IMG/VR virus record: IMGVR_UViG_3300044647_001141
Span: 1-54,235 of that record
Reading direction: 5' to 3' (one strand)
Length of the DNA: 54,235 nt
DNA from: a virus
Taxonomy: Duplodnaviria > Caudoviricetes
This document shows, piece by piece, positions 2,947-50,977 of this stretch. A program made the translations under genes and the position numbers. Below the pieces are notes generated by a model. It worked only from the letters and a program-made list of their open reading frames with translations, did not search any database and was not told the origin of the DNA. Position 1 is the stretch's first letter. The number at the start of each line of letters is the position of its first letter.

Positions 2947-3421
2947 CAGGATACTTGACACAAAGACGTGGATGCGCACGTCGTATGCCATCAATGACAT
3001 CCTGAGTAAATACGACAAGCTGACCCTTATCAGGCTCATACTGATGATCGAACTCCTTGACTTTCCCTATGGCGCAAAGGTCGGGGAAATGGTGAGCCGC
3101 CTTGAGCTGGATGCGGAAGTGATCAGCGGGGGATTGGAGCGGACGGTATCCTCCACGCCGTGGATGGCCGTTGAAAGGGTAGGGGTGTCGGAGGGAAAGG
3201 TGATGAAAGTGTTCTATCTCACCGAGGAGGGGAAGATCTTCCTAAGAGGCGTAAAGAAGCAATTGCATAAGTCATACCGGAAATACAAGAAACTCGCCAC
3301 CTATGAAAGAGCAAATCTATGGCGTAACCGTGACGTACCCGCAGATCCCATCAGCAAACAAGATCGCGAACCGGGAACTTCCACCAAAACAGCAGTACTT
3401 CCGCAGGGCGGAGACGCCTGA
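2927..3421 (+). CDS. Winged-helix (MarR-like) DNA-binding protein
   Basis: HTH-like KVGEMVSRLELDAEVISGGLER followed by wing VFYLTEEGK; overlaps the terL start by 119 nt. Confidence 0.55.
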   Translation: MLASRDDRILDTKTWMRTSYAINDILSKYDKLTLIRLILMIELLDFPYGAKVGEMVSRLELDAEVISGGLERTVSSTPWMAVERVGVSEGKVMKVFYLTEEGKIFLRGVKKQLHKSYRKYKKLATYERANLWRNRDVPADPISKQDREPGTSTKTAVLPQGGDA

Positions 3422-5345
3422 GGTTTTCAACGAGCTTGACTACGACGACGACGGGGATCCGATATACACCGAACAGATGCTTGAGTTCATCCATCAGGAA
3501 CTCGACCGCATCGACAACGGATATTTCTTCTACAACAACCAGAAGCTGGTGTACATCACCGGTGAGCATTATTTCTACATAAACTACTGGACACTTGAGA
3601 ACGATGAGAGACCCGACTATCGCGACTGCGACCGCAGGTGGTTCCTGTTCAAGGACTACTGCCAGCAGCATCCGAGCATAGACGGCGTCATCCGTATCAA
3701 AAAACGCCGGGAGGGTGCTACATCCCAGGAGACCGCATGCCTTGTCAGGACGGCCCTGCGTAACCGCAAGGCGTTCTGCGGCATCATGTCAAAGACCGGA
3801 AAGGATGCCAAGGACTGTTTTGTGAAGATGGTAAAGAACGGATTCGATCAGCTGCCGATATTCCTGAGGCCGACCAACATCGAAGACCCGGACTCGCAGA
3901 TGCAAATTGTGTTCCGAAAGCCGAAGGAGCGCAGTGCCGCCAAGCTCAAACTGAAGCGAAGGAAGGGCCAGGTGTTCGAGGATGACAAGGGCATCGGCAG
4001 CCGCATAGACTTCAGAAATACCGAGCTGAACTCCTATGACTCCGGCAGGCTGACGGAGATACTTGTCGACGAGGGCGGTAAGTTCCCGCCGGATGTGCCG
4101 ATCAATGAATACTGGCCTATCGTCAGGCAGACCCTCCGGCAGGGCGGAAAGAAGGTCGGCTTCTGTGTCATGCCCTCGACGAGCAACAAGCTCACCAAGG
4201 GTGGCCGGGGGTATAAGGTGCTGTGGGACGAGAGTAACCATATCGAGTCTAAGATAACCGCCACGGGACTCTACCGGTATTTCTGTCCGGCACACGATGG
4301 CTACCCTCCCTTCATTGACAAATACGGCAACAGCATCATCGAGAAGCCGACGCGCGAGCAGCAGCTATGGATGAAGGAATACTACGGCGCCACCGATGAC
4401 CAGTGCGAGATGAGTGCAAAGGAATACATCCTGTACCGCCGTTCCCTCATCCGTAACATGGACGCACGCAACGAGGAGACAAGGATGTTCCCGCTCAACG
4501 AGAAGGAGGCGTTCGACTTCGACGACAATACCAATATCTACAACCTCACGGCCATCCGTGACCAGCGGGAATACCTCACAGAGAAGCGACCGGTGCTGCG
4601 GCGTGTCAGGTTCACCAGGGACCGGGATGGCAAGGCGACATGGATAAACGATCCCGACGGCATGTGGCTGGTACTTCGTTTCCCGGACAGCAGCGAGGAG
4701 AACGCAACGATGAGCGATGCGGTGACATCAAAGGTGTCGCCGGCCAACAGGTCTAAATACATTCTGACGGCGGATCCATACAAGAACACCATCGTGGTCG
4801 GGCAGGGGTCAAAGGGTGCCGCCATCGTATGGAGCAAGTTCAATCCGCTTGACCCGGAGAACACGGGCATGCCAATCGCCTTGTTCTGGGGGCGACCAAG
4901 GCGCAAGAAGGAGTTCCACATGCAGATGCTGCTTGCCGGCGAGTTCTGGGGGTGCGAGTTGTGCTATGAGAGCGACTACGATGACTACATCGAATTTCTC
5001 ATGGACGAGGGCAAGATGTCATACGCCATGAAAAGGCCGAAGAACACCATAGATCCGAACAGGAAGCGAAAGGTGATGGGAAAGGAGTATGGCGTCAAGT
5101 CGGGTGACGGGTTCAGCTATTCGATGATGATCGACCGGAGCGTGGAATACGTCGACCAGTACTGCCATAAGATCTACTTCGATGACATCCTCGATCAGCT
5201 CGAAGAATACAGCGAGGAGGAGCGGACACTCTATGACATCGCCGTGGCATTCCAGTTGGGAACCGTCGCCATCAGCGACCCGGTGAAGAAGACAAGGGCG
5301 GAGGCCAAGAAGATGAAACCGTACATGAGGACATACCAGTTGTAA
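3303..5345 (+). CDS. terL: Terminase large subunit (crAss-like type)
   Basis: YITGEHYFYINYW, Walker A variant KKRREGATS, Walker B ILVDEGGK, motif III PSTS, RNase H-fold acidic residues LTADPY / YESD / YDIAVA. Confidence 0.93.
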   Translation: MKEQIYGVTVTYPQIPSANKIANRELPPKQQYFRRAETPEVFNELDYDDDGDPIYTEQMLEFIHQELDRIDNGYFFYNNQKLVYITGEHYFYINYWTLENDERPDYRDCDRRWFLFKDYCQQHPSIDGVIRIKKRREGATSQETACLVRTALRNRKAFCGIMSKTGKDAKDCFVKMVKNGFDQLPIFLRPTNIEDPDSQMQIVFRKPKERSAAKLKLKRRKGQVFEDDKGIGSRIDFRNTELNSYDSGRLTEILVDEGGKFPPDVPINEYWPIVRQTLRQGGKKVGFCVMPSTSNKLTKGGRGYKVLWDESNHIESKITATGLYRYFCPAHDGYPPFIDKYGNSIIEKPTREQQLWMKEYYGATDDQCEMSAKEYILYRRSLIRNMDARNEETRMFPLNEKEAFDFDDNTNIYNLTAIRDQREYLTEKRPVLRRVRFTRDRDGKATWINDPDGMWLVLRFPDSSEENATMSDAVTSKVSPANRSKYILTADPYKNTIVVGQGSKGAAIVWSKFNPLDPENTGMPIALFWGRPRRKKEFHMQMLLAGEFWGCELCYESDYDDYIEFLMDEGKMSYAMKRPKNTIDPNRKRKVMGKEYGVKSGDGFSYSMMIDRSVEYVDQYCHKIYFDDILDQLEEYSEEERTLYDIAVAFQLGTVAISDPVKKTRAEAKKMKPYMRTYQL

Positions 5346-5376: not shown

Positions 5377-5709
5377 ATGAGACATGTTGAAAAGGCGCTT
5401 GTCGCCATGAAGGAAAGCAATGAGTTGTCTAAATTTATCAAACTCGAAAATGCGGATGACGTATCCGGCATTGCGCCGGTGGTTAAGTTCACCGTACAGA
5501 GCGATCCGGTGAGTGCCGTAGGCGTGAACGGATTACAGGCCGTCGATATGCTTGAATACGTCAAGAACTTGTTCAAGAGCCTAAACGACACATTCCCCTG
5601 CCGGGAGAACAGCATTACAATCACAAAGATTGAGGAAGCCATTTTTTGGCAGGAGGCCCGGACAAGGGATCGGATGAAGCGCGGCGTAGAAGGACAAAAC
5701 AAGAACTAA
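5377..5709 (+). CDS. tad1: Tad1-like (Thoeris anti-defence 1 / Acb2-Tad1 hairpin family) signalling-nucleotide sponge
   Basis: C-terminal GVNG..DML..FPCRENSITITKIEEAIFWQEARTRDRMKRGVEG matches the Tad1 signature as I recall it (REN..ALTHVEEALMW..RR..DR..R.V.G). Confidence 0.75.
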   Translation: MRHVEKALVAMKESNELSKFIKLENADDVSGIAPVVKFTVQSDPVSAVGVNGLQAVDMLEYVKNLFKSLNDTFPCRENSITITKIEEAIFWQEARTRDRMKRGVEGQNKN

Positions 5710-5715
5710 TAGGGC

Positions 5716-6555
5716 ATGATAGGCTTTCATGAAAAGGGACATCGCTACGAGTCCATCTCAGAGGATCTTCAGGGCGTGGAGTGGATCAGCGCCACAGGCT
5801 TTGTGGGCCGATTTGAGACACCCTTCGACAAGAATGGAGTTGCGGACAAGGTGAGTAAGAAAAAGGGCAGCAAGTGGTACGGTATGCCCCCCTGGCGTAT
5901 TGTTGAGTTGTGGGATGCGGAGAACCAAAGGTCGACGGATATCGGCTCGATGCTTCACGCCCATCTGGAGCGCAAGTATCTGAGTATGGAAACCATGCCG
6001 CTGTTCGGAAAGGAACTCAAGGTGAACCCACCCTGGTACGACGACCTTGGCAGGAAGATTGACATGCTGCCTCAGATGTCCGAGGGTGTGTATCCTGAGA
6101 AGCTGCTGTTCAAGCGCATCAGCGAAACACTTGGCGTGTGCGGGCAATCCGATGTCGTGGCGATATGCGATGGCAAGGCGCACATCTCCGACCACAAGAC
6201 CAACAAGGAGATAAAGACCGAGAACCACTGGAGTAAACTGCTGCCGCCGTATAGCCATCTGGACGACTGCGAATACAGCAAGTACAACCTGCAGTTATCC
6301 CTGTACATGTGGATTGTATTGCAAAACAATCCGGAGTTAGAGCCGGGCGAGATGCTGATCAGGCACAACCTGTTCGAGATTGAGGCCGTGGATGACTACG
6401 GGTTTCCGGTAGTGGCCATTCGCGGTGGTGTGCCGGTGGTCAGGGAGGTAGTGAAGTACAGGATGAAATACCTGCGCGAGGAGATAGAAAGCGGCATCGA
6501 GTGGATTGTGCGCAATCACAACCGCAAGCAGGCAGCATTAAAAGTAAACCCATAG
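5716..6555 (+). CDS. PD-(D/E)xK superfamily nuclease (Cas4/exonuclease-like)
   Basis: F.EKGHRY, GSMLHAHLE, PEKLL, GVCGQSDVV, ISDHKTNKEIK, KYNLQLSLY motifs. Confidence 0.85.
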   Translation: MIGFHEKGHRYESISEDLQGVEWISATGFVGRFETPFDKNGVADKVSKKKGSKWYGMPPWRIVELWDAENQRSTDIGSMLHAHLERKYLSMETMPLFGKELKVNPPWYDDLGRKIDMLPQMSEGVYPEKLLFKRISETLGVCGQSDVVAICDGKAHISDHKTNKEIKTENHWSKLLPPYSHLDDCEYSKYNLQLSLYMWIVLQNNPELEPGEMLIRHNLFEIEAVDDYGFPVVAIRGGVPVVREVVKYRMKYLREEIESGIEWIVRNHNRKQAALKVNP

Positions 6556-7205: not shown

Positions 7206-7748
7206 CTACTTCTCCTTGTGCGTGTTGCAGAATTTCGTGCCGGAGATGGCGCAGTTCTTGCACTGCACCTTGGTGGACTTAGCGATAGCCTCGCATTGCC
7301 CGAACTTGCAGGCGGCATCCACTTCTGTGCTATATGACCTTGTGAACAGGGAGAACAGAATGATGAACAGGACGACAATGCCGAGGCATCCGGACTTGTT
7401 GGCGGATACCGTTTTTTCGTCAATGGTCTCTCCGGAAAGCGCCTTGGATACAAGACCGAAGAACTTATCGACGATCTCATTGGCCTGGTTGCCGCTGTTG
7501 GTCGCCTTGTTCGAGGTCAGTATGATCTGTGTTTCGGTGTCACTTACTTTCTTGAGCTGTATGGTGGCCGGGACAATTACCGCAAAGCCGCCGACAAGGG
7601 CAACGGTGTAGGTGTTCATGACGGCGTCCCTACTCTCTATCTGGTAGAACTTTTTGCTTGCCGCACATACTTTTTCAATTGCTTCCTTAACATCTGCAAT
7701 GGGGAATGATACCTGTACGTCTCTGTTGATGCCGATTGATAATGCCAT
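7206..7748 (-). CDS. Membrane protein with C-terminal CCCH zinc-knuckle-like domain
   Basis: KSGCLGIVVLFIILFSLF TM segment, then QCEAIAKSTKVQCKNCAISGTKFCNTH; A-rich leader TTAAACCAAAAAAAC-ATG. Confidence 0.7.
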   Translation of the reverse strand: MALSIGINRDVQVSFPIADVKEAIEKVCAASKKFYQIESRDAVMNTYTVALVGGFAVIVPATIQLKKVSDTETQIILTSNKATNSGNQANEIVDKFFGLVSKALSGETIDEKTVSANKSGCLGIVVLFIILFSLFTRSYSTEVDAACKFGQCEAIAKSTKVQCKNCAISGTKFCNTHKEK

Positions 7749-7806
7749 GTTTTTTTGGTTTAATGGTGTTTATATGGATGCGGAGATGAAATTAATGAAT
7801 GAATGT

Positions 7807-7944
7807 TTACCGGCATGTGGCATTTATGACATATTTATTTTTGCTGCCGGGATTATCACGCAGCGCATCAGCAAAATGTTCCTTTGCCTGTCTTAATGCG
7901 ATCAAAGCATTGACTACACTACTTGCCCCTTTGTTCATTGCCAT
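7807..7944 (-). pseudogene. Truncated paralog (45 aa) of the 11666-12034 gene
   Basis: Manual translation MAMNKGASSVVNALIALRQAKEHFADALRDNPGS aligns with MKSGASDLVNAIHSVRQAYEHFGSFQRENPGT, then diverges and stops. Confidence 0.6.
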
Positions 7945-8161
7945 ATGTTTCGTTGTAGTGTACTGCTGCGTCTTTTATTTCTGATTCACCTTTAGCATAT
8001 TCATATCCATTCCATTTGCCCGCATGAAAGGCATCTTCAATCTGCTCCTTCTCCATTGCTTTTGCTTTATGATATTCAGCTATGGGCAATTTCTTAAAAT
8101 ATCCGTGTTCAACCAATATATCTAAAAGCCATTCTACTGCAGTCTGCTTGTTATTCTCCAT
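7919..8161 (-). CDS. Small phage protein, QTAVEWL...EKEQI...YNETY family
   Basis: 80 aa; paralog of the adjacent 8151-8360 gene. Confidence 0.75.
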   Translation of the reverse strand: MENNKQTAVEWLLDILVEHGYFKKLPIAEYHKAKAMEKEQIEDAFHAGKWNGYEYAKGESEIKDAAVHYNETYGNEQRGK

Positions 8162-8360
8162 ATGTTTCTTTATAGTATTGTTCTGGTCTAAATTCTTTAT
8201 CTGTCATATCGTAACTTCCCTGTGTGTAAGCATGCGCAATCTGCTCCTTCTCAATAATTTTAGCAAAATCAAACCATGCGTTAATGCTTCCCACTAATTC
8301 TTCCGATGATGCGGTTGAAAGTTTTTGGTATAACCACCCTACTGCCGTTTGTTGTGCCAT
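8151..8360 (-). CDS. Small phage protein, QTAVxWL...EKEQI...YYKETY family
   Basis: MAQQTAVGWL start at 8360 (alternative in-frame ATG at 8390); its end overlaps the ATG of the next gene. Confidence 0.75.
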   Translation of the reverse strand: MAQQTAVGWLYQKLSTASSEELVGSINAWFDFAKIIEKEQIAHAYTQGSYDMTDKEFRPEQYYKETYGE

Positions 8361-8390
8361 GTGTTTTATTTTATATATTTTATGTGCCAT

Positions 8391-8594
8391 TTAATTATAG
8401 GAACGAAACCAACTGCGTTTTGAATTAGCCATAAATTTAGTTTGGCACTTTACGCATTCGAATTGCCCTACCTCTCTACCATCAACCATGTCAATAAATT
8501 TACATTCTTCAATCGTTCTAATATGGTGAAAAATGGCACATAACAAGGTATTTATAAAAGAATGGCTTTTGTGCTTAATTGTCTGTTGTGCCAT
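8391..8594 (-). CDS. Small putative Zn-binding protein
   Basis: 67 aa with LLCAIFHH..FECVKCQ; begins MAQQT like its neighbours. Confidence 0.6.
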   Translation of the reverse strand: MAQQTIKHKSHSFINTLLCAIFHHIRTIEECKFIDMVDGREVGQFECVKCQTKFMANSKRSWFRSYN

Positions 8595-8597
8595 AAT

Positions 8598-8996
8598 TTA
8601 CTTTTTGAATAGTGTTTTAAAGTATTGTTTGATTGCCCACCATATAAGCATTCTAATTGCTTTTCTTTGATTGTGATATGGTAATTGAAAAAAATCTGGG
8701 AATACATTAATTAACACCTTACGAGTATTTGCATAGTAGTAAGTAGATTCTATTTTTTCATTGATAGGTGGATTGTTCCGCACGGAAAATGTAAATTCTG
8801 GATTTGAGCTAATTGAAAACTTACCATTATTTACAGGTATATTGATACGCATTGTGGAAACTAAATCTTGATTTGCAGTAACTGTAAACTTACCACCGAA
8901 TTTGTAAGTAGATTCCTTTTCCATTTGATTTGCACTAACTGAAAAATCACCGAAACTGTAAGTAGATTCTTCTTTTATTGGCGTTTTCTGTGCCAT
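8598..8996 (-). CDS. Hypothetical protein with internal ESTY repeats
   Basis: 132 aa; KEESTYSFGDFSVSANQ / EKESTYKFGGKFTVTANQ / KIESTYYY. Confidence 0.6.
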   Translation of the reverse strand: MAQKTPIKEESTYSFGDFSVSANQMEKESTYKFGGKFTVTANQDLVSTMRINIPVNNGKFSISSNPEFTFSVRNNPPINEKIESTYYYANTRKVLINVFPDFFQLPYHNQRKAIRMLIWWAIKQYFKTLFKK

Positions 8997-9006
8997 GTTA
9001 TTTGGT

Positions 9007-9270
9007 TTATAGTTTTTCTATTTCTTGTTTAACTTCTCGCCAATATTTATCAGCTTCTTCTCGTTGTTCTTCGTAATAATACTCATGAGTTCCACCGCAA
9101 TCATCCCAATCAACATTGGATGGATTACGAGGTTCTGAGTTTATTATCTTATCCACTACTAACAATGCAATTTTTTTACTTGCTAAAATATCAAGATTGC
9201 CACACTCAACAGATGGGATAATATTATAAATCAATGTTACAATTTGTACAGCTTCTTCTTTCGGTGTCAT
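9007..9270 (-). CDS. Small phage protein, MTPKE...YWxxVKQEIEKL family
   Basis: Start moved to ATG 9270 (MTPKEEAV), which overlaps the paralog's stop (ATGA). Confidence 0.75.
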   Translation of the reverse strand: MTPKEEAVQIVTLIYNIIPSVECGNLDILASKKIALLVVDKIINSEPRNPSNVDWDDCGGTHEYYYEEQREEADKYWREVKQEIEKL

Positions 9271-9509
9271 AGTTTTTCTATTTCTTGTTTTACTTGAAAC
9301 CAATAATCCATAGTCGAACAAACATCTGTATTGAGAGGTTTACTGTGTGGGTTTGATGCTATTATGTAATTAACAGCTGTCATTGCGCAAGCTTTAGCGT
9401 ACTGGTTCCTGTGAACGGGTTCACTCTCCCCAGTTTGCGTATTAATTATCGTATAAGTCGAAAACCCCATAGCGTGATATAGTTCGTAAGCCTGTTCTTT
9501 CGGTGTCAT
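9267..9509 (-). CDS. Small phage protein, MTPKE...YWxxVKQEIEKL family
   Basis: 80 aa tandem paralog of 9007-9270 with identical terminal DNA blocks. Confidence 0.75.
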   Translation of the reverse strand: MTPKEQAYELYHAMGFSTYTIINTQTGESEPVHRNQYAKACAMTAVNYIIASNPHSKPLNTDVCSTMDYWFQVKQEIEKL

Positions 9510-9510
9510 G

Positions 9511-9786
9511 TTATTTAGTTATGAATAATTCATACACGCTATTCTTTGTCCTAAACTTCACATGCGCTTCACTCTGCTCGATGATTTGCGTGACGGTTGT
9601 GGTCAGCCATCTGTACCCTGCGCTGAATGGGCCAAGGATGCACGACCTGCCCACTGCGATACTATCATGGATAGTATTAGCCGAGTCATCCTCGTTCCAC
9701 TCTACCCATCCAACCTTGTCCGATTGCTTGGTCAAGCCGTCACTTTCTCTAACCAGTTTGTATGTCGTGCTTGCGGGATTATCCAT
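9511..9786 (-). CDS. Small beta-rich phage protein
   Basis: 91 aa (YKLVRESDGL..WLTTTVTQII..KFRTKNSVYEL), coupled to its neighbours. Confidence 0.65.
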   Translation of the reverse strand: MDNPASTTYKLVRESDGLTKQSDKVGWVEWNEDDSANTIHDSIAVGRSCILGPFSAGYRWLTTTVTQIIEQSEAHVKFRTKNSVYELFITK

Positions 9787-9946
9787 TGTATGTTTTATGA
9801 GTTTTATACACCAGGATCCATAAAATCAAAACGAGCGTAAATAGCGTGGACACGGGAAAGTAAAATGCGCCAGCAACGAGAATCGCTGTCAGGCTTAACG
9901 TTATGAGCAAAAGTGCGGAGGCATAAAGAGCCGATTTGGTATTCAT
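9779..9946 (-). CDS. Small hydrophobic membrane peptide (55 aa)
   Basis: Manual translation MNTKSALYASALLLITLSLTAILVAGAFYFPVSTLFTLVLILWILVYKTHKTYNG; A-rich leader; absent from the ORF track (<60 aa). Confidence 0.55.
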   Translation of the reverse strand: MNTKSALYASALLLITLSLTAILVAGAFYFPVSTLFTLVLILWILVYKTHKTYNG

Positions 9947-10008
9947 GTTATTTTGTTTTTTGGTTTAACTGAAATGTAATCTGATGGCATCCGGGAATGA
10001 CCAAGAGA

Positions 10009-11688
10009 TCATAAATTCTTTTGAGTATTCTCGTATTCTTCAATAGTCTTGAAGATGGCATATGGAATCTGAGGTACTACTGCATTCCCGTATGCCTTGA
10101 TGGATTCGTTTCGCCACTTTGACCAAGCGGAAACTGTCCTCCTCTCGACTTCCATAGCAACCAGTGCAATTTCATGTGACAAGTACGGCATAGTGTCTGC
10201 AAATTGTTCCTTGAATTGTTTTTCCAATTCTCGTCCTTGTGGTGTATTTGCAAATGTTCCGTACTCCCGCAGTTTTCGCAGTAGTGCCTCCGATGTTTCC
10301 TCGCTAAATGCAGATGTCCCTTTCTCGTCTGTATTGGAGGGCGAACATAACTGCAAGACTTTGAGCAGTATTGTCGGCTCATGTATCTTGTATAATCCTC
10401 CCAGATATTCCCGAATTTCCTCCGATTGAAGGATATCCCACACTTCCTGCAATTCTTGATCGGTGTATCTTTCAGTGATTGTGGCATATATTTCCGGCTT
10501 TATATGTCTAACCATCCAGTCGGAAACCCCATCATACTTTCCACAAATTGGGGATTGAGTTGGGAACTCTTCCCAGTCTGGGCGAATGCATCCGGAAGTG
10601 AATTTGTTTCCGTTCTGCCCGATGCTTCCAATGCCTCCGAAGATCTCGCCCCCTTGTAATCTCTCGTTGCCGGTGTCGGCAGCATCCCCATTGCCATTGC
10701 TCTGCTCAATGTCACCGAATGCATTGAACCTTCCTTGACTTGACTGCTCTTCATCTTCGCAGTCGCATTCGTTGAATCCATTGCGGTCGGAGTCGGCAGC
10801 ATTTGTAACCTTGCCATTTGCTTCAATGGCATTTGTAAATTCACCCCCTTCTCTGCCCATTTCTCCTTGTCTATCTCCCATTTTTCGGGTGTCCTGGCTG
10901 AGTTCCAATCGAAGGCGTTCGGGGTCGGGAGCAATCCCATTGTTGCATAATCGTTCAGACCAAATGTCCATCCTTGTGATATTTTCCGTTTCGTTCTGCC
11001 ATCCTCCATTTTGCTGCCATACTTCTCGTCCCTTGTTTGTGGTGTCGGCAGCATCCCCATACTTGCCATCCGACCTATGTTGAGAGAATGACTGCTCTTC
11101 CCATCCGTTGTCTTCCGTCTTCCGTTCTCGTTCATCTCGCAATCCGATTCCGGTTCCTGGGTTGTTGGTGTGGGCAACAAACCAAACTCTGTCTCTGCGG
11201 TGGACAGAGCCGACACCTGCAGCTGGAAGTACATACGATTGTACTTCGTACCCTTCAGCTTCCAGGTCAGCTTGCACCTCGTGGAATACCAGTCCTCCCG
11301 ACCAATTAATAAGGCCGAAAACGTTCTCTCCCACGACCCATGTTGGCTGAACTTCCCGAATGACTCTAAGCATTTCCGGCCAGAGATGTCGAGAGTCTTC
11401 CTTGCCGAGTCTTTTTCCGGCTGCGGAGTAGGGTTGGCAGGGAAATCCACCGGTGAGAATAATGTCATCTGTTCTCCAATTGTCCCCAAATCTTTTTGAG
11501 AGTTCATAGTTTAATTTTTCGTAGGTGAGTGTATGTATGTCATCATGGTGGTACGCATCAGGCCAATGATACTGCAAGACATTATTTCCAAATGGATTTA
11601 TTTCGCACGAGGCAATGTTTGTCCAACCCATCCATTCGGATGCCAGATCAAACCCTCCGATTCCACTAAATAGACTTATGTGAAGCAT
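10009..11688 (-). CDS. DNA (cytosine-5) methyltransferase, alpha-type polypeptide (motifs I-VIII and X, no in-frame IX)
   Basis: FSGIGG (I), CEIN (II), DDI (III), GGFPCQPYS (IV), ENVFG (VI), HRRDRVWFVA (VIII), IKAYGNAVVPQ (X). ATG at 11688. Confidence 0.9.
   Translation of the reverse strand: MLHISLFSGIGGFDLASEWMGWTNIASCEINPFGNNVLQYHWPDAYHHDDIHTLTYEKLNYELSKRFGDNWRTDDIILTGGFPCQPYSAAGKRLGKEDSRHLWPEMLRVIREVQPTWVVGENVFGLINWSGGLVFHEVQADLEAEGYEVQSYVLPAAGVGSVHRRDRVWFVAHTNNPGTGIGLRDERERKTEDNGWEEQSFSQHRSDGKYGDAADTTNKGREVWQQNGGWQNETENITRMDIWSERLCNNGIAPDPERLRLELSQDTRKMGDRQGEMGREGGEFTNAIEANGKVTNAADSDRNGFNECDCEDEEQSSQGRFNAFGDIEQSNGNGDAADTGNERLQGGEIFGGIGSIGQNGNKFTSGCIRPDWEEFPTQSPICGKYDGVSDWMVRHIKPEIYATITERYTDQELQEVWDILQSEEIREYLGGLYKIHEPTILLKVLQLCSPSNTDEKGTSAFSEETSEALLRKLREYGTFANTPQGRELEKQFKEQFADTMPYLSHEIALVAMEVERRTVSAWSKWRNESIKAYGNAVVPQIPYAIFKTIEEYENTQKNL
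10077..10487 (-). CDS. HNH endonuclease overprinted inside the methyltransferase gene
   Basis: CRKC..YCSKSC N-terminal part, then CENCGSTEHLQIHHKDENWKNNSRNNLQTLCRTCHMKLH (Zn-bound HNH); same strand as the MTase, different frame. Confidence 0.8.
   Translation of the reverse strand: MPQSLKDTPIKNCRKCGISFNRRKFGNIWEDYTRYMSRQYCSKSCSYVRPPIQTRKGHLHLARKHRRHYCENCGSTEHLQIHHKDENWKNNSRNNLQTLCRTCHMKLHWLLWKSRGGQFPLGQSGETNPSRHTGMQ
10500..11507 (-). CDS. Methyltransferase beta-type subunit (motif IX plus five LPTP repeats) in an alternative frame of the MTase
   Basis: Ends LNPQFVESMMGFPTGW, which is motif IX-like; five (L/M)LPTP modules; layout as in M.EcoHK31I alpha/beta. Exact start uncertain. Confidence 0.75.
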   Translation of the reverse strand: MNSQKDLGTIGEQMTLFSPVDFPANPTPQPEKDSARKTLDISGRKCLESFGKFSQHGSWERTFSALLIGREDWYSTRCKLTWKLKGTKYNRMYFQLQVSALSTAETEFGLLPTPTTQEPESDCEMNENGRRKTTDGKSSHSLNIGRMASMGMLPTPQTRDEKYGSKMEDGRTKRKISQGWTFGLNDYATMGLLPTPNAFDWNSARTPEKWEIDKEKWAEKGVNLQMPLKQMARLQMLPTPTAMDSTNATAKMKSSQVKEGSMHSVTLSRAMAMGMLPTPATRDYKGARSSEALEASGRTETNSLPDAFAQTGKSSQLNPQFVESMMGFPTGWLDI

Positions 11689-12034
11689 CTTCTTTACTTT
11701 TTTCAACTGTTATGTCATCGCCGGCAATGATGCAATCGATGATCGTCTCGACTACCTCTCGCTCTTTCGGACTCAGCTTGGCGATCTTCTCCTGTATCGC
11801 CAGTGTGGTGAAGACATCCGACTCCCATTCTGCCCGTATGCCGTCTCGTATCACCTGGGGGAAAAGGGGGTATGTAATGATGTCGCCATAAATCCATTCC
11901 AATTTTGCGCAGTACTGCTTCATCAACCTTGCGCCAATGGTTCCCGGGTTCTCTCGTTGGAAAGAACCAAAATGCTCATACGCCTGTCTGACGGAATGGA
12001 TGGCGTTTACCAGATCTGATGCTCCTGATTTCAC
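11666..12034 (-). CDS. Hypothetical protein
   Basis: 122 aa, coupled to the initiator gene (ATGA) and overlapping the MTase start. Confidence 0.7.
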   Translation of the reverse strand: MKSGASDLVNAIHSVRQAYEHFGSFQRENPGTIGARLMKQYCAKLEWIYGDIITYPLFPQVIRDGIRAEWESDVFTTLAIQEKIAKLSPKEREVVETIIDCIIAGDDITVEKSKEDASHKSI

Positions 12035-12684
12035 ATTACGAATTTTCGTTCTTCAATTTTTGGCACAACCTTGAGGCTGCCCGGTCGGGTTCCCTGGCGG
12101 ATGTTCGGGAACCAATACCCCTTTGCATACGCCTTCCAGTCCATGATCTTTCTGCCGTTCTTGTCCACCCATCCGATGGCGGAATTCTTGTTGTAGAATA
12201 GTTCCGCCTGCTTGAGATCCTTGCCGTTTTCAAGGAAGTATGCCTTTACTTCTTCTTCCTCAGGCGCTAAAAAATTGTCTTTGCCTGTGTGTGTGTGTTC
12301 TGTATTTGTATTATGTATTACTGTATTAGTGTATTCTGTATTTGAAATGGAGGTTTTCCGCTGCGGATTATCCGTTGCGGATTTACCGCTGCGGATTATC
12401 CGTTGCGGAAAATCGCTATCGGTTAAGGGGGTAGGGTAGGCCCTAATGGAATATTCGAAAGTTCCGGCTGCGGTTTTATGGCAAATACATTCAGCGTAAC
12501 CCTTCTTTTCAAGTTCACTAAAGGCGGATGTAACGGCGGAATACCCGTCTTTGCAGTAGGACGTTAAGTCCTTTTTCCGGATGACGGTATGATCTTGGAG
12601 TAGAAGCATAATCTGAAGCAAGGACTTGGCCTTTAGGCTGATCCTGTTGTCAAAGGCGATATTCTTCAGAATGGTGATGTCCAT
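12031..12684 (-). CDS. Phage replication initiator (N-terminal HTH, internal origin)
   Basis: DNRISLKAKSLLQIML..KDGYSAVTSAFSELEKKGY N-terminus; C-terminal P.EEEVKAYF..AELFY..GWVDKNGRKIMDWKA; iterons in the linker. Start 12684, alternatively 12714. Confidence 0.75.
   Translation of the reverse strand: MDITILKNIAFDNRISLKAKSLLQIMLLLQDHTVIRKKDLTSYCKDGYSAVTSAFSELEKKGYAECICHKTAAGTFEYSIRAYPTPLTDSDFPQRIIRSGKSATDNPQRKTSISNTEYTNTVIHNTNTEHTHTGKDNFLAPEEEEVKAYFLENGKDLKQAELFYNKNSAIGWVDKNGRKIMDWKAYAKGYWFPNIRQGTRPGSLKVVPKIEERKFVM
12301..12413. repeat. Putative replication origin: four 14-bp iterons plus AT-rich TGTATT-repeat tract
   Basis: CCG(C/T)TGCGG-cored 14-bp units at 12358, 12372, 12386 and 12400, next to six TGTATT copies at 12301-12343, inside the initiator gene as in lambda O. 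Confidence 0.75.
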
Positions 12685-12721
12685 CTTGGGACTTCTTTGG
12701 TCGCTTCCAAGCATTGGAAAT

Positions 12722-12805
12722 AAAAACCCCGTTAGGACTTCAGGGCCGACACCCATCCGCCCAAACGGGGCCAAAATCAGTTCAGATACCGTGTCGGCGG
12801 TTCTA
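12722..12805 (-). promoter_or_regulatory. Structured leader/attenuator upstream of the initiator gene
   Basis: Minus-strand hairpin CCCCGUUUGG...CCUAACGGGG-UUUUU; loop segment GUGUCGGC is complementary to upstream GCCGACAC. Confidence 0.45.
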
Positions 12806-12810
12806 CAACA

Positions 12811-12855
12811 CAAACATACGTATAAAAAGCGTAAATTTGACAAAATTTAATTTTG
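12811..12855. promoter_or_regulatory. Divergent Bacteroidota-type promoters with central operator
   Basis: TAnnTTTG on - strand (TATGTTTG, 12811-12818) and + strand (TAATTTTG, 12848-12855); TACGT-N7-GCGTA at 12817-12833. Confidence 0.6.
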
Positions 12856-12857
12856 CC

Positions 12858-15332
12858 GTGAGTTACCAAGCGCCTTTGAGCCAAACCCTGTACGAGTTCC
12901 ATACCTCGACTCCGTCCAAGAAGTCGGACCCTGAGTTCGGGCGGACCGTTGCAAGGCAGATGGTCAACACGATCCGCGATGGCCTCAATGGCTACTACGT
13001 AAAGCGCAACCGGCGATTCGCCGACCTGAGGAAGATCGCCCAGGGGCGACATGACATGCGGGAGTTCCTTGACCTGATGGGCATAGACGGCAAGAACGCA
13101 TACGTAAAGCTCGACATGACACCGCCGGCCATCCTGCCCAAATTCCTCGACATCGTCGTAGAGCGGTTCATGGAACTGGAGGAGCGCCCAACGGTCACGG
13201 CCGTCGATGACAACTCCAAGCAGCAGCGGCAAAAGGAGATCAATGAGGCTGAATTCGCTATGAACATGGGCGGCGTCATTGCGGGACTGGAGCAACAGGC
13301 AGGCATCCCGCTGGTGGACCCCAACAAGTACATCCCTGAGAACTACGATGACCTGACGCTATACTTCGAGACGGAACACAAGCTTCCAGAGGAGGTAAAA
13401 TTCCAAAAACGCATACTCGACGCCCTTGATGACGGAGGCTATGAGGTCTTCAAGCGTTCGATGCTCTACGACCTGGTTGAGGTCGGCATGGCATGGGCGT
13501 TCGTCTACAAGGACGAGAACGGAGCAAAGAAATACCGCCGTTGCATACCGGAGAACACCATCTACTCGTGGAGCAACTACGACGACTTCAGGGATTCCAC
13601 GGTCATTGGAGAACTGGAAAAGATGAAGGTCTCCGACATCCGGGCCAGGTTCCCCAAGATCAACGAGCGAACCCTGTTCGACATGTTCAAGCGCACCGAT
13701 CAGGGTGGCAAGGCCGAACTTTCCTGGGCGGAGGAGTTCCGGGTGATGCTGATCCGGCCCTATGATGACTGCGTGGTGGAGCTTTTCCACTTCCAGATCG
13801 TCACCACCGAGGAGCGCATGTGGGTGGAGAAGCGCGACAGCTACGGAAAGAGCGTGCTGAACGAGAAGAAGGAAAGGCCAAAATACCTGGGCGACAACAA
13901 GACACTCATCGAAAAGCGCCTGAAGGTCGTGTACACCGGCTGCTATTCTCGCACCACGGACGAGATGCTTGAGTGGCGTGTCATGGAGAACATGATCAAG
14001 CCGCATTACGCCATGCACGAGGCGTTCACCAACTATGTCGGATTCATGCCCAACAACCGGGACATGGTCAACATCTCGCTCACCGAGCGGTCCATTACGG
14101 CGATAAGGATGCTCTCGCTCATCCAGCTTAAAAAGCAGCAACTCATCGCCAAGATGCGCCCCGACGGATTGCTGGTCAACACACGGGCCTTGCAGGGCGT
14201 ACACTTGGGCATGGGTCAGGATGCGGAGTCTCCGCTTGAACTTCAGGCCATGTACGACCAGACGGGCATCCAGTACTACACCGACCTCGACGAGGATGGA
14301 GAGACCCGTAACGGCGCACCCATCCAACCCATCGAGAGCAATGGCAACGCCCAAAGCCTCATGGCGCTCGACCGGGAATACAACTTCTGGATCGATAAGC
14401 TGCGCAGCGACCTCGGCACCAACGAATACGTAGAGGGTCAGTCCGTCAATCCAAAGCTCGGACTGGGCGTCATGAACAACCAGATCAGCGCCTCCAACCG
14501 GGCCACCAACTTCGTGTACCGTGGATTTCTGAGCATCCTTGAGGGCATCGCCAAGCGCATCGCCATCATGGACTGGTACGACATCGTCGAGACGGGTTCC
14601 AGGGAATACGGCATCACGCCTGATGAGATGGAGGGAAAAATCTTCGACATCAAGATTGACATGGCGCCCACCGATACCGACCGAATGTACATCGAGCAGA
14701 TGGCACAGACCGCGCTATCCGCCGGTCTGATCACTTTTGAGGAGGCTGTAAAGGTCAGGCGCATCGCAAAGGAGAACGTCAAACTGGCTGAGATATACCT
14801 TGGCAAGTACGAGGCCAAGCGCAAGCGGGAGCAGCAGGAGTCCGCACAGCAGAACTCAATGGTGCAGGCACAGATACAGGACCAGGTCGCAAAGAACAAG
14901 GCGCAAAGCGACGCCCTGCTGCTTCAGGGTAAAGGTCAATTCGACCTCAAAAAGCAGCAGATGCTCAATGAGGCCGCCAAGACACAGGTCATGGGTCAGG
15001 TGGTCAACACCATCCTCTCTGAGTGGATGAAGATGGGCAAATCGGTTTCCGAGATGCCGCAGGAATTCCAGTCGATGGTATCCGCCTTCATGCAGAACAT
15101 GGTAGGCTCGCAGCAACTGCAGGCGGCACGCAACGAGCAGGAGGCCGGTGAGATGCAGCAGGAGATGATGGAATCGCAACAGGAGGCAATGATGCAGCAG
15201 CAGGAAGGTCAGCCGGATATGGAAGAAGGCATGCAGTCGCCAGAAGGGCAGCAACCCGAAATGGAATCGGAGATGGAGATGCCGGAGTCAGAGGGTCCGC
15301 AAGAAGGGCAGGAGGCAGAGACCGAGGATTAA
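12858..15332 (+). CDS. Portal protein (crAss-like)
   Basis: LDMTPPAILPKFLDIVV, YSWSNYDDFRD and YDQTGIQYY motifs; acidic Q/E-rich tail; GTG start just after the promoter element; first gene of the head module. Confidence 0.88.
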   Translation: MSYQAPLSQTLYEFHTSTPSKKSDPEFGRTVARQMVNTIRDGLNGYYVKRNRRFADLRKIAQGRHDMREFLDLMGIDGKNAYVKLDMTPPAILPKFLDIVVERFMELEERPTVTAVDDNSKQQRQKEINEAEFAMNMGGVIAGLEQQAGIPLVDPNKYIPENYDDLTLYFETEHKLPEEVKFQKRILDALDDGGYEVFKRSMLYDLVEVGMAWAFVYKDENGAKKYRRCIPENTIYSWSNYDDFRDSTVIGELEKMKVSDIRARFPKINERTLFDMFKRTDQGGKAELSWAEEFRVMLIRPYDDCVVELFHFQIVTTEERMWVEKRDSYGKSVLNEKKERPKYLGDNKTLIEKRLKVVYTGCYSRTTDEMLEWRVMENMIKPHYAMHEAFTNYVGFMPNNRDMVNISLTERSITAIRMLSLIQLKKQQLIAKMRPDGLLVNTRALQGVHLGMGQDAESPLELQAMYDQTGIQYYTDLDEDGETRNGAPIQPIESNGNAQSLMALDREYNFWIDKLRSDLGTNEYVEGQSVNPKLGLGVMNNQISASNRATNFVYRGFLSILEGIAKRIAIMDWYDIVETGSREYGITPDEMEGKIFDIKIDMAPTDTDRMYIEQMAQTALSAGLITFEEAVKVRRIAKENVKLAEIYLGKYEAKRKREQQESAQQNSMVQAQIQDQVAKNKAQSDALLLQGKGQFDLKKQQMLNEAAKTQVMGQVVNTILSEWMKMGKSVSEMPQEFQSMVSAFMQNMVGSQQLQAARNEQEAGEMQQEMMESQQEAMMQQQEGQPDMEEGMQSPEGQQPEMESEMEMPESEGPQEGQEAETED

Positions 15333-50715: not shown

Positions 50716-50948
50716 TTTGGTCACACTGCGGTCACAGATGCGTATAAGTTATTGACAATCATATATTTATTAATTAGCGACTCGACTTGTAATTATACGC
50801 AAATACAACATATACTGGTTATTTAGCCTGAAAATCGGATAACTAATTTACTTATTTCTTTTTTAGAATTGAATTTACGTAGTATATTTGGTCACACTAC
50901 GGTCACATAAATCAACCTGGTCACATTGTGTGACTAAAAATCGTGACC
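50716..50948. other. Putative attP (arm-type repeats around an AT-rich core)
   Basis: 21-bp direct repeat TTTGGTCACACT(G/A)CGGTCACA at 50716-50736 and 50887-50907; further GGTCACA at 50919 and inverted copies at ~50929 and ~50942; directly upstream of the integrase. Confidence 0.7.
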
Positions 50949-50977
50949 AAAGTCCAAAAAAAACCAAAAAAGCAGCA

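Follow-up and report, generated by a model that had tools for sequence, protein, structure and literature searches.

Background

In integrons, small genes that mostly lack promoters of their own are lined up in one orientation, with a content that varies, accompanied by an integrase gene (intI), an attI site and attC hairpins. Short repeats and conserved coding motifs have also been described in other settings. In part of their account, Trojet et al. (2011, PMC3157838) describe conserved glycine-rich coding motifs in the T-even gp38 adhesins, which form a structural core and separate hypervariable segments from one another. The PeSL cassettes found in the hyperplastic regions of T4-type genomes are presented, in a portion of the paper by Arbiol et al. 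(2010, PMC2839356), as intergenic units that combine a promoter with a stem-loop terminator. For temperate phages, part of the study by De Paepe et al. (2014, PMC3945230) concerns relaxed homologous recombination by Rad52-like recombinases, an exchange that, in the portion concerned, tolerates diverged substrates and leaves traces of homology at the borders of the exchanged fragments (PMC3945230).

The DNA considered here, the whole of which we refer to as the window, is a stretch of 54,235 nucleotides from a virus assigned to the Caudoviricetes (IMG/VR record IMGVR_UViG_3300044647_001141). A sequence-only reading of the window had drawn attention to an array of small genes at 7807-9946 and proposed that short repeated strings at the gene ends act as sockets through which genes are inserted, swapped or excised, in the manner of an integron without attC sites. 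On the evidence given below, we consider it likely that the array reflects ordinary homology-driven shuffling at conserved coding motifs, within a hyperplastic, AT-rich operon of accessory genes in a temperate phage of Bacteroidota. The phage is taken to be temperate because an integrase gene is present in the window.

The array and its setting

Nine tightly packed minus-strand genes of 45-132 aa are present in the ORF list, as had been described, with lengths of 55, 91, 80, 87, 132, 67, 69 (or 79), 80 and 45 aa and with neighbours that overlap by as much as 26 nt or lie as much as 30 nt apart. The first is a hydrophobic 55-aa ORF (9779..9946, GC 41%) whose sequence reads as membrane-like and for which the Pfam search returned DUF6463 only, weakly and below the cutoff (E 0.0063). 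It is followed by a 91-aa protein of unknown function that matches phrog_38150 (9511..9786, E 4.8e-20) and by two copies of a MTPKE..KQEIEKL family (phrog_21441, alignment A2), of which copy 1 (80 aa) lies at 9267..9509 and copy 2 (87 aa) at 9007..9270, the start of the latter overlapping the stop of the former (ATGA). Then come a 132-aa ORF with internal repeats (8598..8996; repeat families D1, D6 and D8), a 67-aa Cys/His-rich protein that belongs to a separate family (8391..8594; alignment A3, 12 homologues), and two genes found by the A1 family HMM, namely a QTAVEW..EKEQI..YYxETYG copy 1 (8151..8360, 69 aa from the ATG at 8360) and a QTAVEW..MEKEQI..YYNETYG copy 2 (7919..8161, 80 aa). The array ends in a 45-aa ORF (7807..7944) which, by comparison with the related locus L004, is the truncated N-terminal remnant of a gene of ~113-122 aa.

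The neighbours of the array are a DNA methyltransferase and a 180-aa protein without assigned function, for which our searches found no relatives. The C5 methyltransferase locus lies just upstream on the minus strand (10009..11706; Pfam DNA_methylase, E 3.4e-35) and has an HNH endonuclease ORF nested within it (10077-10487; Pfam HNH, E 4e-5; phrog_1271, E 2e-12); relatives of the methyltransferase are 48-65% identical and a MTPKE gene adjoins one of seven. A full-length 122-aa paralogue of the 45-aa remnant is found on the minus strand at 11666..12034 and is 62% identical over 113 aa to the 113-aa protein of L004 (E 2e-52). The GC content is 37.1% over 7807-9946 and 33.6% over 7900-9300, as compared to 51.0% in the remainder of the window, and the 163 loci that bear the two families have a median GC of 34.9%; because of this contrast, the operon is regarded as foreign in origin and was probably acquired horizontally.

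The 132-aa ORF has diverged internal repeats in its N-terminal part and a conserved C-terminal core of ~40 aa; its homologue in L002 is only 54 aa long and lacks the repeats, and other short relatives (43-104 aa) match residues ~90-131 only. Tandem Repeats Finder reported nothing over 7500-10300, the internal repeats of this ORF being too diverged. Close homologues of the 67-aa gene open with MQNRITEQTIKH and the window gene opens with MAQQTIKH; the homology with L002 extends through ATGGCACAACA(G/A)AC and then ends, and to judge from these alignments the first codons (MAQQ) look as if they were swapped in from the start of a QTAV-type gene. The 45-aa ORF shares 32 residues, all identical, with the first 32 positions of the 113-aa protein from L004; the two proteins diverge thereafter, with DNA homology stopping at 7842. 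Since the array thus ends inside a truncated gene, that junction used no linker.

The repeated strings as motifs of two protein families

The four exact repeats on which the sequence-only reading was built are where it placed them. Each occurs at exactly two sites in the 54-kb window: TTCTTTCGGTGTCAT (MTPKE) at 9256-9270 and 9495-9509, ATAGTTTTTCTATTTCTTGTTT (KQEIEKL) at 9009-9030 and 9269-9290, CCATATGTTTC (ETYG) at 7941-7951 and 8158-8168, and CAATCTGCTCCTTCTC (EKEQI) at 8038-8053, which is the central-motif DNA of QTAV copy 2, and 8237-8252. Two matches were reached in 0 of 100 shuffles for each of them. The string ATGGCACA occurs nine times in the window against 3.24 expected, and the four gene starts attributed to it are indeed all on the minus strand (ATG at 8360, 8390, 8594 and 8996), except that the ATGs at 8390 and 8360 share one frame and open the same ORF, for which the family alignment favours 8360 as the start of QTAV copy 1. 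The suggestion that ETYG supplies the next ATG, at 7944, did not hold up as well. The L004 homologue of the 45-aa gene has TAC rather than TAT at the equivalent position and begins at the equivalent of 7938, so 7944 is probably not a start; family-wide, the Tyr codon of ETYG is TAT in 50 cases and TAC in 47.

Rather than generic sockets that join unrelated cassettes, the repeated strings are motifs from the N-terminus, centre and C-terminus of small proteins that belong to two virus-only families. In the whole window, the family HMMs detect two copies of each family and no more. Both MTPKE genes match the phrog_21441 profile over its full length (1-75/75), 9267-9509 with E 1.3e-6 and 9007-9270 with E 9.2e-5, and they align with each other whole length (32% identity, E 1e-7, blastp). 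The conserved blocks of this A2 family follow the order MTPKE..AKxCALIAV..SNPHSNP..YWxEVKQEIEKL, with MTPK invariant and the YWxEVKQEIEKL tail conserved, and the family has 51 homologues in the database, none with a Pfam domain. The A1 HMM matches 7919-8161 (E 6.9e-36) and 8151-8360 (E 3.7e-21) and no further ORF in the window; the two QTAV genes align at 31% identity (E 7e-5) and both possess all three conserved blocks in order. Near-invariant motifs of A1 are QTAVEW, AKxMEKEQI and YYNETY, and none of its 73 database homologues has a Pfam domain; at the thresholds applied, neither PHROG nor Pfam gave a match for the family itself. The middles of these genes, which had been described as differing between conserved ends, are not unrelated: the MTPKE pair and the QTAV pair each align as homologues, although the nucleotide identities of the window paralogues are only 55% and 58%. 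The ESM Atlas places both families in virus-only clusters of hypothetical proteins. On AlphaFold2 models (pLDDT 87.6 for MTPKE copy 1 and 84.7 for QTAV copy 2 at 7919..8161), both families are confidently predicted to fold into small helical domains, with the motifs in helices, which in the QTAV model are predicted at H8-19, H27-56 and H65-79 as regards helix placement only.

Breakpoints and mosaic genes

Comparison with related loci suggests where exchanges have taken place. QTAV copy 1 is 94% identical in nucleotide sequence to L004 over 8380-8043. As far as EKEQ, the N-half of QTAV copy 2 is the same as L004 gene 2; from YNETYG onward the copy equals L004 gene 3 together with the gene downstream of it, so that it reads as a mosaic gene. 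MTPKE copy 1 has 94% amino acid identity to L002 and L003, and MTPKE copy 2 has a C-half that is nucleotide-identical to that of L002 and an N-half that is 37% identical, the switch being the central motif. Against L002, L004 and L006, the junctions of the window fall at MAQQT, EKEQ, YNETYG, the central motif of MTPKE copy 2 and start codons, with the distal end of the array, inside the truncated gene, as the exception.

The same pattern is seen across the A1 family. Mosaics were scored on variable columns only. Of the 39 mosaic pairs in A1, 37 have their switch between variable column 28-30 and column 41. Among distinct group pairs (half-gene mosaics) the switch lies in columns 28-41 for 22 of 24, where 45 positions were feasible, with nucleotide identity of 88% or more to one side of the switch and of 55% or less to the other. 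The binomial P is 9.5e-10 if pairs are taken as independent, and 8.5e-6 if each of the 10 connected components is taken as one event at the motif. Mosaic pairs are non-independent events. One identical C-half carries five different N-halves, and in the raw codon alignments shared sequence starts or ends within the conserved block. The proposal that breakpoints fall on the motifs is thus borne out by the A1 mosaics and by the window junctions; in A2, 4 of 6 breakpoints are at motifs, which is not significant (P = 0.15). The EKEQI central block appears from these alignments to be the main crossover block of the A1 family. All four combinations of halves were seen on inspection of A1 at the level of protein motifs only, and a four-combination test at the DNA level gave 0 cycles among half-type clusters of at least 85% nucleotide identity.

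Two other measures of clustering were set aside. A first change-point scan over all columns yielded 827 and 1159 'mosaic' pairs and was circular, being driven by the 30-nt terminal motifs. Endpoints of all-against-all BLAST matches were enriched 10-14x at motifs relative to the locus average, for loci that had been preselected for containing the families; within genes, motifs and variable parts differ only ~1.7x under a rough normalisation.

The motifs might instead be constrained as protein and have no part in rearrangement, in which case the mosaics would be products of illegitimate recombination filtered by selection. Conservation of the motifs at the protein level and their position in helices accord with such an origin, as do the many junctions exactly at start codons or ATGA overlaps, which selection-filtered random joins predict, and the downstream end of the array, which is an illegitimate junction within a gene. 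We nonetheless hold it to be improbable: intragenic switches are packed in a block of ~14 columns, the ends of shared sequence lie within that block, and motif remnants persist at the ends of genes outside the families (MAQQ in the 67-aa gene and an EQY stop relic in a 79-aa gene of L002). The clustering could in part reflect selection on the recombinants, if these are foldable only when joined in conserved helices, rather than where exchange originates.

Codon usage in the motif DNA

In 806 kb of sequence, GAGAAGGAGCAG occurs 43 times inside family genes and 0 times outside them, and two further motif strings occur 30/0 and 43/0 times inside and outside, respectively. Whether synonymous sites at the linkers are over-conserved had been put forward as a check. 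Between distant pairs the codons at conserved residues are identical at a frequency of 0.58 (A1) and 0.65 (A2), where 0.50 and 0.56 would be expected, so that among distant members some 40% of the codons for conserved residues are not the same. Position T6 is encoded by ACA 85, ACG 39, ACT 13 and ACC 4 times, and L11 has six codons in use. Synonymous change at the motifs therefore appears, from these counts, to be largely free. In support of the sequence-only reading, some motif codons are biased in a site-specific manner. In GCC AAA nnn ATG GAG AAG GAG CAG of the central block, G-/C-ending codons are used by 61-79% of de-replicated members as compared to 6-23% family-wide (z 5.7-16), and the bias holds against locus-specific codon usage (z 8.4-18.9). 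This MEKEQ bias exceeds what protein constraint predicts and may point to selection on the DNA itself. An out-of-frame internal ATG that lies 10 nt past AAGGAG in both window copies was considered as a sign that the motif serves as a Shine-Dalgarno-like site, an idea that was dropped because gene leaders here have no such site and the ATG is unconserved in codon alignments.

The bias is one ground for thinking of a family that shuffles itself, with the motifs, above all the central block, kept at the DNA level as recombination joints that yield N-half x C-half variants. That the bias survives de-replication and locus-specific backgrounds speaks for this, as does an exact 12-mer that is present 43 times in family genes, and the codon-biased block is the switch block of 22/24 mosaics. 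Diverged paralogues at the same locus also share slightly more motif codons than members at different loci do, 0.65 vs 0.58 (p = 1.6e-4) and, in a second such comparison, 0.72 vs 0.65 (p = 0.004), although genes of one locus have their codon usage in common, which confounds this excess. Motif codon identity is only modestly above expectation, and in A1 it is no higher (0.577) than at chance-identical residues of variable columns (0.627). Moreover, the N-terminal motif differs at three synonymous sites between the window paralogues, and translational or mRNA-level causes could also underlie the codon bias. Weighing these points, we find a self-shuffling family unlikely. We are nearly as doubtful of the broader proposition that the arrays might serve Bacteroidota phages as a recombination-based generator of diversity for intracellular host-takeover or counter-defence factors; if it were true, tandem arrays would go on joining N-halves and C-halves of small early proteins in new ways, much as gp38 adhesins are shuffled, though with effectors inside the cell as the object.

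Relatives, copy number and host

The two families recur often in phages of Bacteroidota, and hundreds of confirmed loci with them are found in IMG/VR. The A1 family is present in 105 of 164 sources, with 2-4 copies in 43 of those, and the A2 family in 99 of 164, with 2-4 copies in 20 of those. Homologues of the 91-aa gene, whose metagenome relatives are at most 57% identical, adjoin genes of the two families in 16 of 22 metagenome loci, and loci found independently through this gene contain 0-5 A1 copies in differing orders. Near-identical half genes have unrelated upstream flanks in 15 pairs vs similar ones in 11, and unrelated downstream flanks in 25 pairs vs similar ones in 12. Order and copy number (0-5) thus vary widely among relatives, and the objection that gene order might be fixed falls away. 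No near-identical relative of the phage was recovered by a distant search of INPHARED, which gave one 77-nt match, and a literature search with the motif strings and phrog_21441 returned a single, unrelated paper on keratin. Among 18 matches to genome contigs, 12 are titled as Flavobacteriia, Chitinophagaceae, Sphingobacteriales, Cytophagales or Bacteroidia MAGs, which we take to be Bacteroidota, and the host of the phage is very likely a member of that phylum.

Searches for cassette machinery and function

The sole integrase in a PHROG scan of 36 ORFs is at 50888-52204, 41 kb from the array, and that scan found no IntI adjoining the array. Among 18 inverted-repeat pairs there is no recurrent hairpin at gene junctions, and repeats of the attC type were not found. 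Rfam at E <= 1 gave a chance U4 match only. With a sigma-70 consensus, which may not suit Bacteroidota, 18 promoter-like sites were scored, as compared to 13.2 +/- 3.1 in shuffles; terminator-like sites came to 3, where shuffles gave 6.4, and the minus strand had none of them. No Erf, RecT or Rad52-like recombinase was identified in the window, which amounts to ~76% of a genome.

A dedicated integron-like system, in which the linkers would be recognition sites of a site-specific recombinase, has in its favour that the small genes are co-oriented, packed and poor in promoters and that short repeats recur where they end, as well as the variation in gene content among relatives. We give it hardly any credence. 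The only integrase is too distant to adjoin the array; gaps of at most 30 nt contain no recurrent inverted repeats; there are no promoter/terminator cassettes and no noteworthy Rfam match; the repeats are in-frame coding motifs that no gene outside the two families carries; and most breakpoints are mid-gene at the central motif, which produces chimeric genes and not excised cassettes. Dedicated cassette machinery is not involved.

As to function, PADLOC gave 0 matches for 12 proteins with models of defence systems, not counter-defence, a result that bears little on the idea of anti-defence payloads; Pfam gave sub-threshold matches only for the array proteins, and Foldseek comparison of both family models with the PDB returned no match at E <= 0.001.

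Interpretation

Ordinary shuffling at the motifs would operate on an operon that comprises tandem pairs of both families, the phrog_38150 gene, the 67-aa and 132-aa genes, the membrane-like ORF and the truncated remnant. Tandem and inter-phage copies would recombine at the motifs by ordinary homology or micro-homology; exchange is placed there because all family members carry the same three short conserved blocks. The outcome would be half-gene chimeras, gene gain and loss, and variable gene order. The clustering of breakpoints is observed, and the recombination enzymes that would act on them we infer. From their context, the proteins might tentatively be seen as early accessory factors for host takeover or counter-defence, with specificity residing in the variable halves, and they are candidates for counter-defence screens.

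The locus offers a quantifiable case of how hyperplastic regions of phage genomes evolve, in which families would diversify through half swaps at a central motif and through expansion and contraction of tandem arrays. This looks like homology-driven mosaicism of the ordinary sort rather than a mobile-cassette system of a new kind, and the synonymous bias at MEKEQ is the one feature that could lift the case above the ordinary. Annotation also gains two families and the motifs they carry, along with one gene recognised as a truncated remnant and another whose start is chimeric.

Comparison with known systems

By profile match the MTPKE genes belong to phrog_21441 and the 91-aa gene to phrog_38150, for which PHROGs gives no function. 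The array resembles integrons in being a co-oriented set of small genes with variable content; unlike them, it has no intI beside it and no attI or attC hairpins, and its junctions lie within coding motifs. With the mosaics attributed to Rad52-like recombination, as far as part of that account goes (PMC3945230), the window shares its temperate character and homology borders of the kind described; it departs from them in that the homologous stretches are ~15-30 nt long and that no Rad52-like, RecT or Erf gene is found in the 54-kb record.

The working of PeSL cassettes, as given in a portion of their description (PMC2839356), is what the sequence-only reading resembles: there, too, small non-essential ORFs are inserted, deleted or replaced through short repeats. 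The repeats in the present array are instead coding, the gaps between genes are at most 30 nt, and promoter- and terminator-like sites are not enriched. Relative to gp38, within what part of that source describes, these are not tail-fibre adhesins but cytoplasmic-looking helical proteins of ~70-90 aa encoded in an early/accessory operon of Bacteroidota phages, in tandem arrays of up to 5 copies, and they are not known to be linked to host range. The likeness to gp38 lies in the way that QTAVEW, MEKEQI and YYNETYG separate variable halves, with switches that map to the central block; exchange within or next to the motifs, as in gp38, is found for A1 (22/24), and the corresponding 4/6 in A2 is not significant.

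The Repeated Strings and the Families That Carry Them

Nine co-oriented minus-strand ORFs run from 9946 to 7807 and encode, in that order, products of 55, 91, 80, 87, 132, 67, 69/79, 80 and 45 aa, with junctions that range from a 26-nt overlap to a 30-nt gap and include an ATGA stop-start overlap at 9267-9270. A sequence-only reading had pointed to this tight packing and to four short "linker" strings repeated within it, and on both points it was right: by exact count each string occurs exactly twice in the 54,235-base window (MTPKE at 9256-9270 and 9495-9509, KQEIEKL at 9009-9030 and 9269-9290, ETYG at 7941-7951 and 8158-8168, EKEQI at 8038-8053 and 8237-8252), two matches per string were reached in 0 of 100 dinucleotide-preserving shuffles, and the repetition is real and far beyond chance. 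The start string ATGGCACA occurs 9 times in the window against 3.24 expected; 4 of the 9 are minus-strand copies, whose ATGs lie at 8360, 8390, 8594 and 8996.

The genes at 9267-9509 and 9007-9270 can be aligned from end to end (31/96 identical, E 1e-7) and both match positions 1-75 of the 75-position profile phrog_21441 (E 1.3e-6 and 9.2e-5, respectively), while those at 7919-8161 and 8151-8360 are also alignable (25/81 identical, E 7e-5). We refer to these pairs as the MTPKE and QTAV families. Of 311 candidates retrieved with the 80-aa QTAV protein, 73 passed E <= 0.001, and all of these lack a Pfam domain; the MTPKE protein recovered 51 among 54. In an alignment of 42 QTAV homologues with both window copies (44 rows), QTAVEW, AKxMEKEQI and YYNETY are invariant or at least 90% conserved and the stretches between them are variable; the corresponding alignment of both window copies with 45 of the 51 MTPKE homologues has an invariant MTPK and strong conservation of AKxCALIAVxxIIxSNPHSNPFNT and YWxEVKQEIEKL. 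HMMs of the two alignments pick out these two copies of each family and no others anywhere in the window. MTPKE, KQEIEKL, EKEQI and ETYG are thus N-terminal, central and C-terminal motifs of the two families, and the middles, which had been taken to be unrelated, are themselves partly conserved.

AlphaFold2 models built with these alignments predict confident small domains for both families, with helices at 8-19, 27-56, 65-73 and 76-79 for QTAV (pLDDT 84.7) and a helix, beta-hairpin, helix, helix order for MTPKE (pLDDT 87.6). The conserved motifs sit in predicted helices, which would give a protein-level reason for the conserved gene ends. Foldseek found nothing in the PDB at E <= 0.001 for either model, and matches in the ESM Atlas were confined to virus clusters of hypothetical proteins, of which the largest has 2280 members and is 99% viral. 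Pfam gave only sub-threshold matches to the array proteins, PADLOC, whose models describe defence systems and not counter-defence, gave 0 hits for 12 proteins, and a full-text literature search with the motif strings and phrog_21441 produced no relevant paper.

Synonymous Variation in the Motifs

The HMMs were run on 163 fetched loci and the window segment, and the hits were codon-aligned (152 unique QTAV and 114 unique MTPKE genes). Nearly all motif codons vary synonymously: Thr6 is ACA in 85 genes, ACG in 39, ACT in 13 and ACC in 4, Leu11 uses six codons, and the Tyr of ETYG is TAT in 50 and TAC in 47, so the suggestion that ETYG supplies the next ATG (via TATGG) does not hold family-wide. 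Among distant pairs (<25% amino acid identity in variable columns), codon identity in QTAV motifs is 0.577, as compared to 0.498 expected from family usage and 0.627 at chance-identical residues of variable columns; the MTPKE values are 0.648, 0.557 and 0.564. The window paralogues, 55% and 58% identical in nucleotides, use the same codon at 22/29 and 15/26 identical residues, with three synonymous differences in the QTAV N-terminal motif. Nor do the linkers act as general sockets, since GAGAAGGAGCAG, ACAGCAGTAGAATGG and TACTACAACGAAAC, with 43, 30 and 43 occurrences in family ORFs, are absent from the 806 kb outside these.

Linker conservation is therefore mostly explained by protein constraint, with exceptions at some sites. 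The central motif (8038-8053 and 8237-8252 in the window; loci L002 to L164) is mostly GCC AAA nnn ATG GAG AAG GAG CAG, with Ala32 as GCC and Met-Glu-Lys-Glu-Gln as ATG GAG AAG GAG CAG, whereas the same residues prefer A-ending codons family-wide; the exact 12-mer of this motif is among the strings counted above, with 43 copies in family genes and none elsewhere. This strong site-specific preference (z = 8.4-18.9 against locus-specific codon usage, and 5.7-16 after collapse to 49 representatives) counts against pure protein constraint. Thr2 of MTPKE is ACA in 91/93 genes, and a CTATGA stop-start overlap arises from the frequent use of CTA for the last Leu. Given the G-ending codon bias in MEKEQ, the bolder reading, in which the motif joints would be maintained at the DNA level, keeps a small probability.

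Crossover Points

A first change-point scan was circular, being driven by the motifs themselves, and was discarded. Half-gene mosaics were then defined on variable columns only, as pairs with at least 85% nucleotide identity on one side and at most 55% on the other. In 37 of 39 such QTAV pairs the switch falls between variable columns 28-30 and column 41, i.e., in the QAKAMEKEQI block, and in 6/8 MTPKE pairs at the central block. A second count, with near-identical genes collapsed and a wider feasible range (after columns 16-60), places 22 of 24 QTAV group pairs in columns 28-41 (binomial P 9.5e-10 if pairs are independent, 8.5e-6 if each of 10 connected components is one motif event), so the prediction that breakpoints fall on linkers is borne out for the QTAV central motif; the MTPKE count, 4/6, is not significant (P = 0.15). 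In raw codon alignments, five distinct N-halves (loci L035, L065, L017, L008 and L052) stand on one identical C-half, where shared identity begins at CAA GCC AAA GAA ATG GAG AAG, and several N-halves are joined to differing C-halves, identity ending after GAG AAG GA(G/A) CA. Clustered at 85% nucleotide identity, half-types are joined beyond one-to-one in 23 (QTAV) and 9 (MTPKE) extra cases, and these clusters contain no closed four-combination cycle in either family.

Junctions in the window array were also located by comparison with two of its nearest DNA relatives, L002 and L004. Over 8380-8043 the window is 94% identical to L004; this homology breaks off within GAGAAGGAGCA of gene 7919-8161, restarts (91%) at ACTACAACGAAACATATGG, the YNETYG block, and reaches 7842, the distal end of the array. 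This end is inside a truncated 45-aa gene (7807-7944, minus strand) and is an illegitimate junction in which no motif was used. Residues 3-34 of the remnant equal the first 32 residues of an L004 113-aa protein and diverge thereafter, and a full-length paralogue of this ~113-aa type is found 3.7 kb upstream (11666-12034, minus strand; 62% identical to the L004 protein, E 2e-52). Homology to L002 spans both MTPKE genes, with the N-half of copy 2 replaced (C-half 100% and N-half 37% identical, the switch being at the central motif). It also extends across 8720-8581 through ATGGCACAACA(G/A)AC and then ends; this start opens a QTAV-family gene in L002 and, in the window, an unrelated 67-aa Cys/His-rich gene (8391-8594, minus strand) from a separate family of 12 database members. 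In closer homologues the 67-aa gene opens with MQNRITEQTIKH, in the window with MAQQTIKH, so the start of the window gene looks to have been swapped at a micro-homology. A non-family 79-aa gene in L002 ends in an EQYY..ETYG relic with TAT changed to TAG, and other junctions are at start codons, as where L002 carries two extra genes inserted after AAACCAAATAACATG.

A Fluid Neighbourhood

A gene order fixed among relatives, which would have counted against the sequence-only reading, is not seen: flanks, order and copy number all vary. Pairs with a near-identical N-half have unrelated upstream DNA in 15 cases and similar DNA in 11, pairs with a common C-half have unrelated downstream DNA in 25 and similar DNA in 12, and junctions are typically at ATG, ATGA overlaps or motif edges. 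Copies range from 1 to 4 per locus in the family-ascertained set. An independent set was found through the 91-aa gene (9511-9786, minus strand; phrog_38150, E 4.8e-20) and comprises 26 metagenome loci, 22 with a full match; same-strand QTAV and/or MTPKE genes accompany it in 16/22, in 0-5 and 0-3 copies, respectively, before, after or on both sides. Up to 5 tandem QTAV copies are seen in L200 and L210, among metagenome contigs L190 to L211. The phrog_38150-type gene and the two families thus form a recurrent but fluid neighbourhood. The 132-aa ORF (8598-8996, minus strand) combines a conserved C-terminal ~40 aa, the only portion that related short proteins of 43-104 aa share with it, with an expansion of 3-4 diverged internal repeats (ESTYxFG..F[ST]V[ST]ANQ) that TRF does not pick up; its L002 homologue has 54 aa and no internal repeats.

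Genome Context, Hosts and Base Composition

The record, an IMG/VR virus contig estimated to be 76% complete, encodes by PHROG scan a terminase large subunit (3303-5345), an exonuclease (5716-6555), a portal (12714-15332), tail and virion proteins, an endolysin, an integrase (50888-52204) and a primase/helicase (52219-53898). A 110-aa protein (5377-5709, plus strand; phrog_2428, E 1.7e-17) may be a counter-defence sponge, with a weak Pfam match to the Acb2/Tad1 hairpin domain (E 5.2e-4) whose 20.6 bits stay below the cutoff of 27. The minus-strand block consists, in order, of a replication-initiator-like gene (12031-12843), a 122-aa gene, a C5 DNA methyltransferase (10009-11706) and, distally, the array. 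Three overlapping minus-strand frames with family matches occupy the methyltransferase locus: a 565-aa frame (10009-11706; Pfam DNA_methylase at residues 9-210, the last 170 aa matching phrog_363 at positions 269-319 of 327), a 335-aa alternative (10500-11507; phrog_1008 "DNA methyltransferase", E 7e-36) with five [LM]LPTP repeats, and a nested HNH endonuclease ORF (10077-10487; Pfam HNH E 4e-5, phrog_1271 E 2e-12) ~130 nt upstream of the array. This arrangement may reflect frameshifts, insertion of a homing endonuclease or an assembly error. Of 7 loci fetched through the methyltransferase, only L183 has an MTPKE-family gene (6020-6268) immediately after its methyltransferase gene, as in the window block.

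The hosts are probably Bacteroidota. Twelve of 18 genome contigs hit by the QTAV family carry Bacteroidota-type names (Flavobacteriaceae, Flavobacterium, Flavobacteriales, Flavobacteriia, Sediminibacterium, Chitinophaga, Chitinophagaceae, Sphingobacteriales, Emticicia, Bacteroidia, Bacteroidetes), the genera among which we take to belong to that phylum, and the AAATAACATG leaders of the array genes, which have no Shine-Dalgarno sequence, are consistent with such hosts. GC content is 37.1% over 7807-9946 and 33.6% over 7900-9300, as compared to 51.0% in the rest of the window. The 163 family-bearing loci have a median GC of 34.9% (IQR 31.8-38.3%), and in 83-85% of them the family genes are AT-richer than the locus they sit in. 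The island is therefore most plausibly DNA exchanged among low-GC phages that has entered this phage of 51% GC.

Comparison with Known Systems

The sequence-only interpretation is partly supported. Its linker strings are motifs of two protein families present as tandem paralogues. The same motifs mark the places where crossovers preferentially fall, MTPKE clustering being short of significance, in an accessory operon that is fluid and exchanged horizontally. There is no evidence of a dedicated cassette system: the PHROG scan shows no recombinase beside the array and the gene junctions no recurrent hairpin, so that the likeness to an integron fails on defining features. Promoter-like and terminator-like sites are not in excess in the array (by a sigma-70 consensus, which may not suit Bacteroidota), Rfam gave no match of note, the incomplete record yielded no recognisable Rad52, RecT or Erf-type gene, and searches of INPHARED and with the methyltransferase, 180-aa flank and 91-aa proteins found no near-identical relatives of the phage. 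In the array, two uncharacterised families illustrate well an evolutionary mode that is already known. It behaves as expected from homology-driven mosaicism in phages (De Paepe et al. 2014, PMC3945230), it can be likened to motif-mediated shuffling in T-even gp38 adhesins (Trojet et al. 2011, PMC3157838), and its outcome resembles PeSL-mediated shuffling of small ORFs in the hyperplastic regions of T4 genomes, although its repeats differ in nature from those of PeSLs (Arbiol et al. 2010, PMC2839356).
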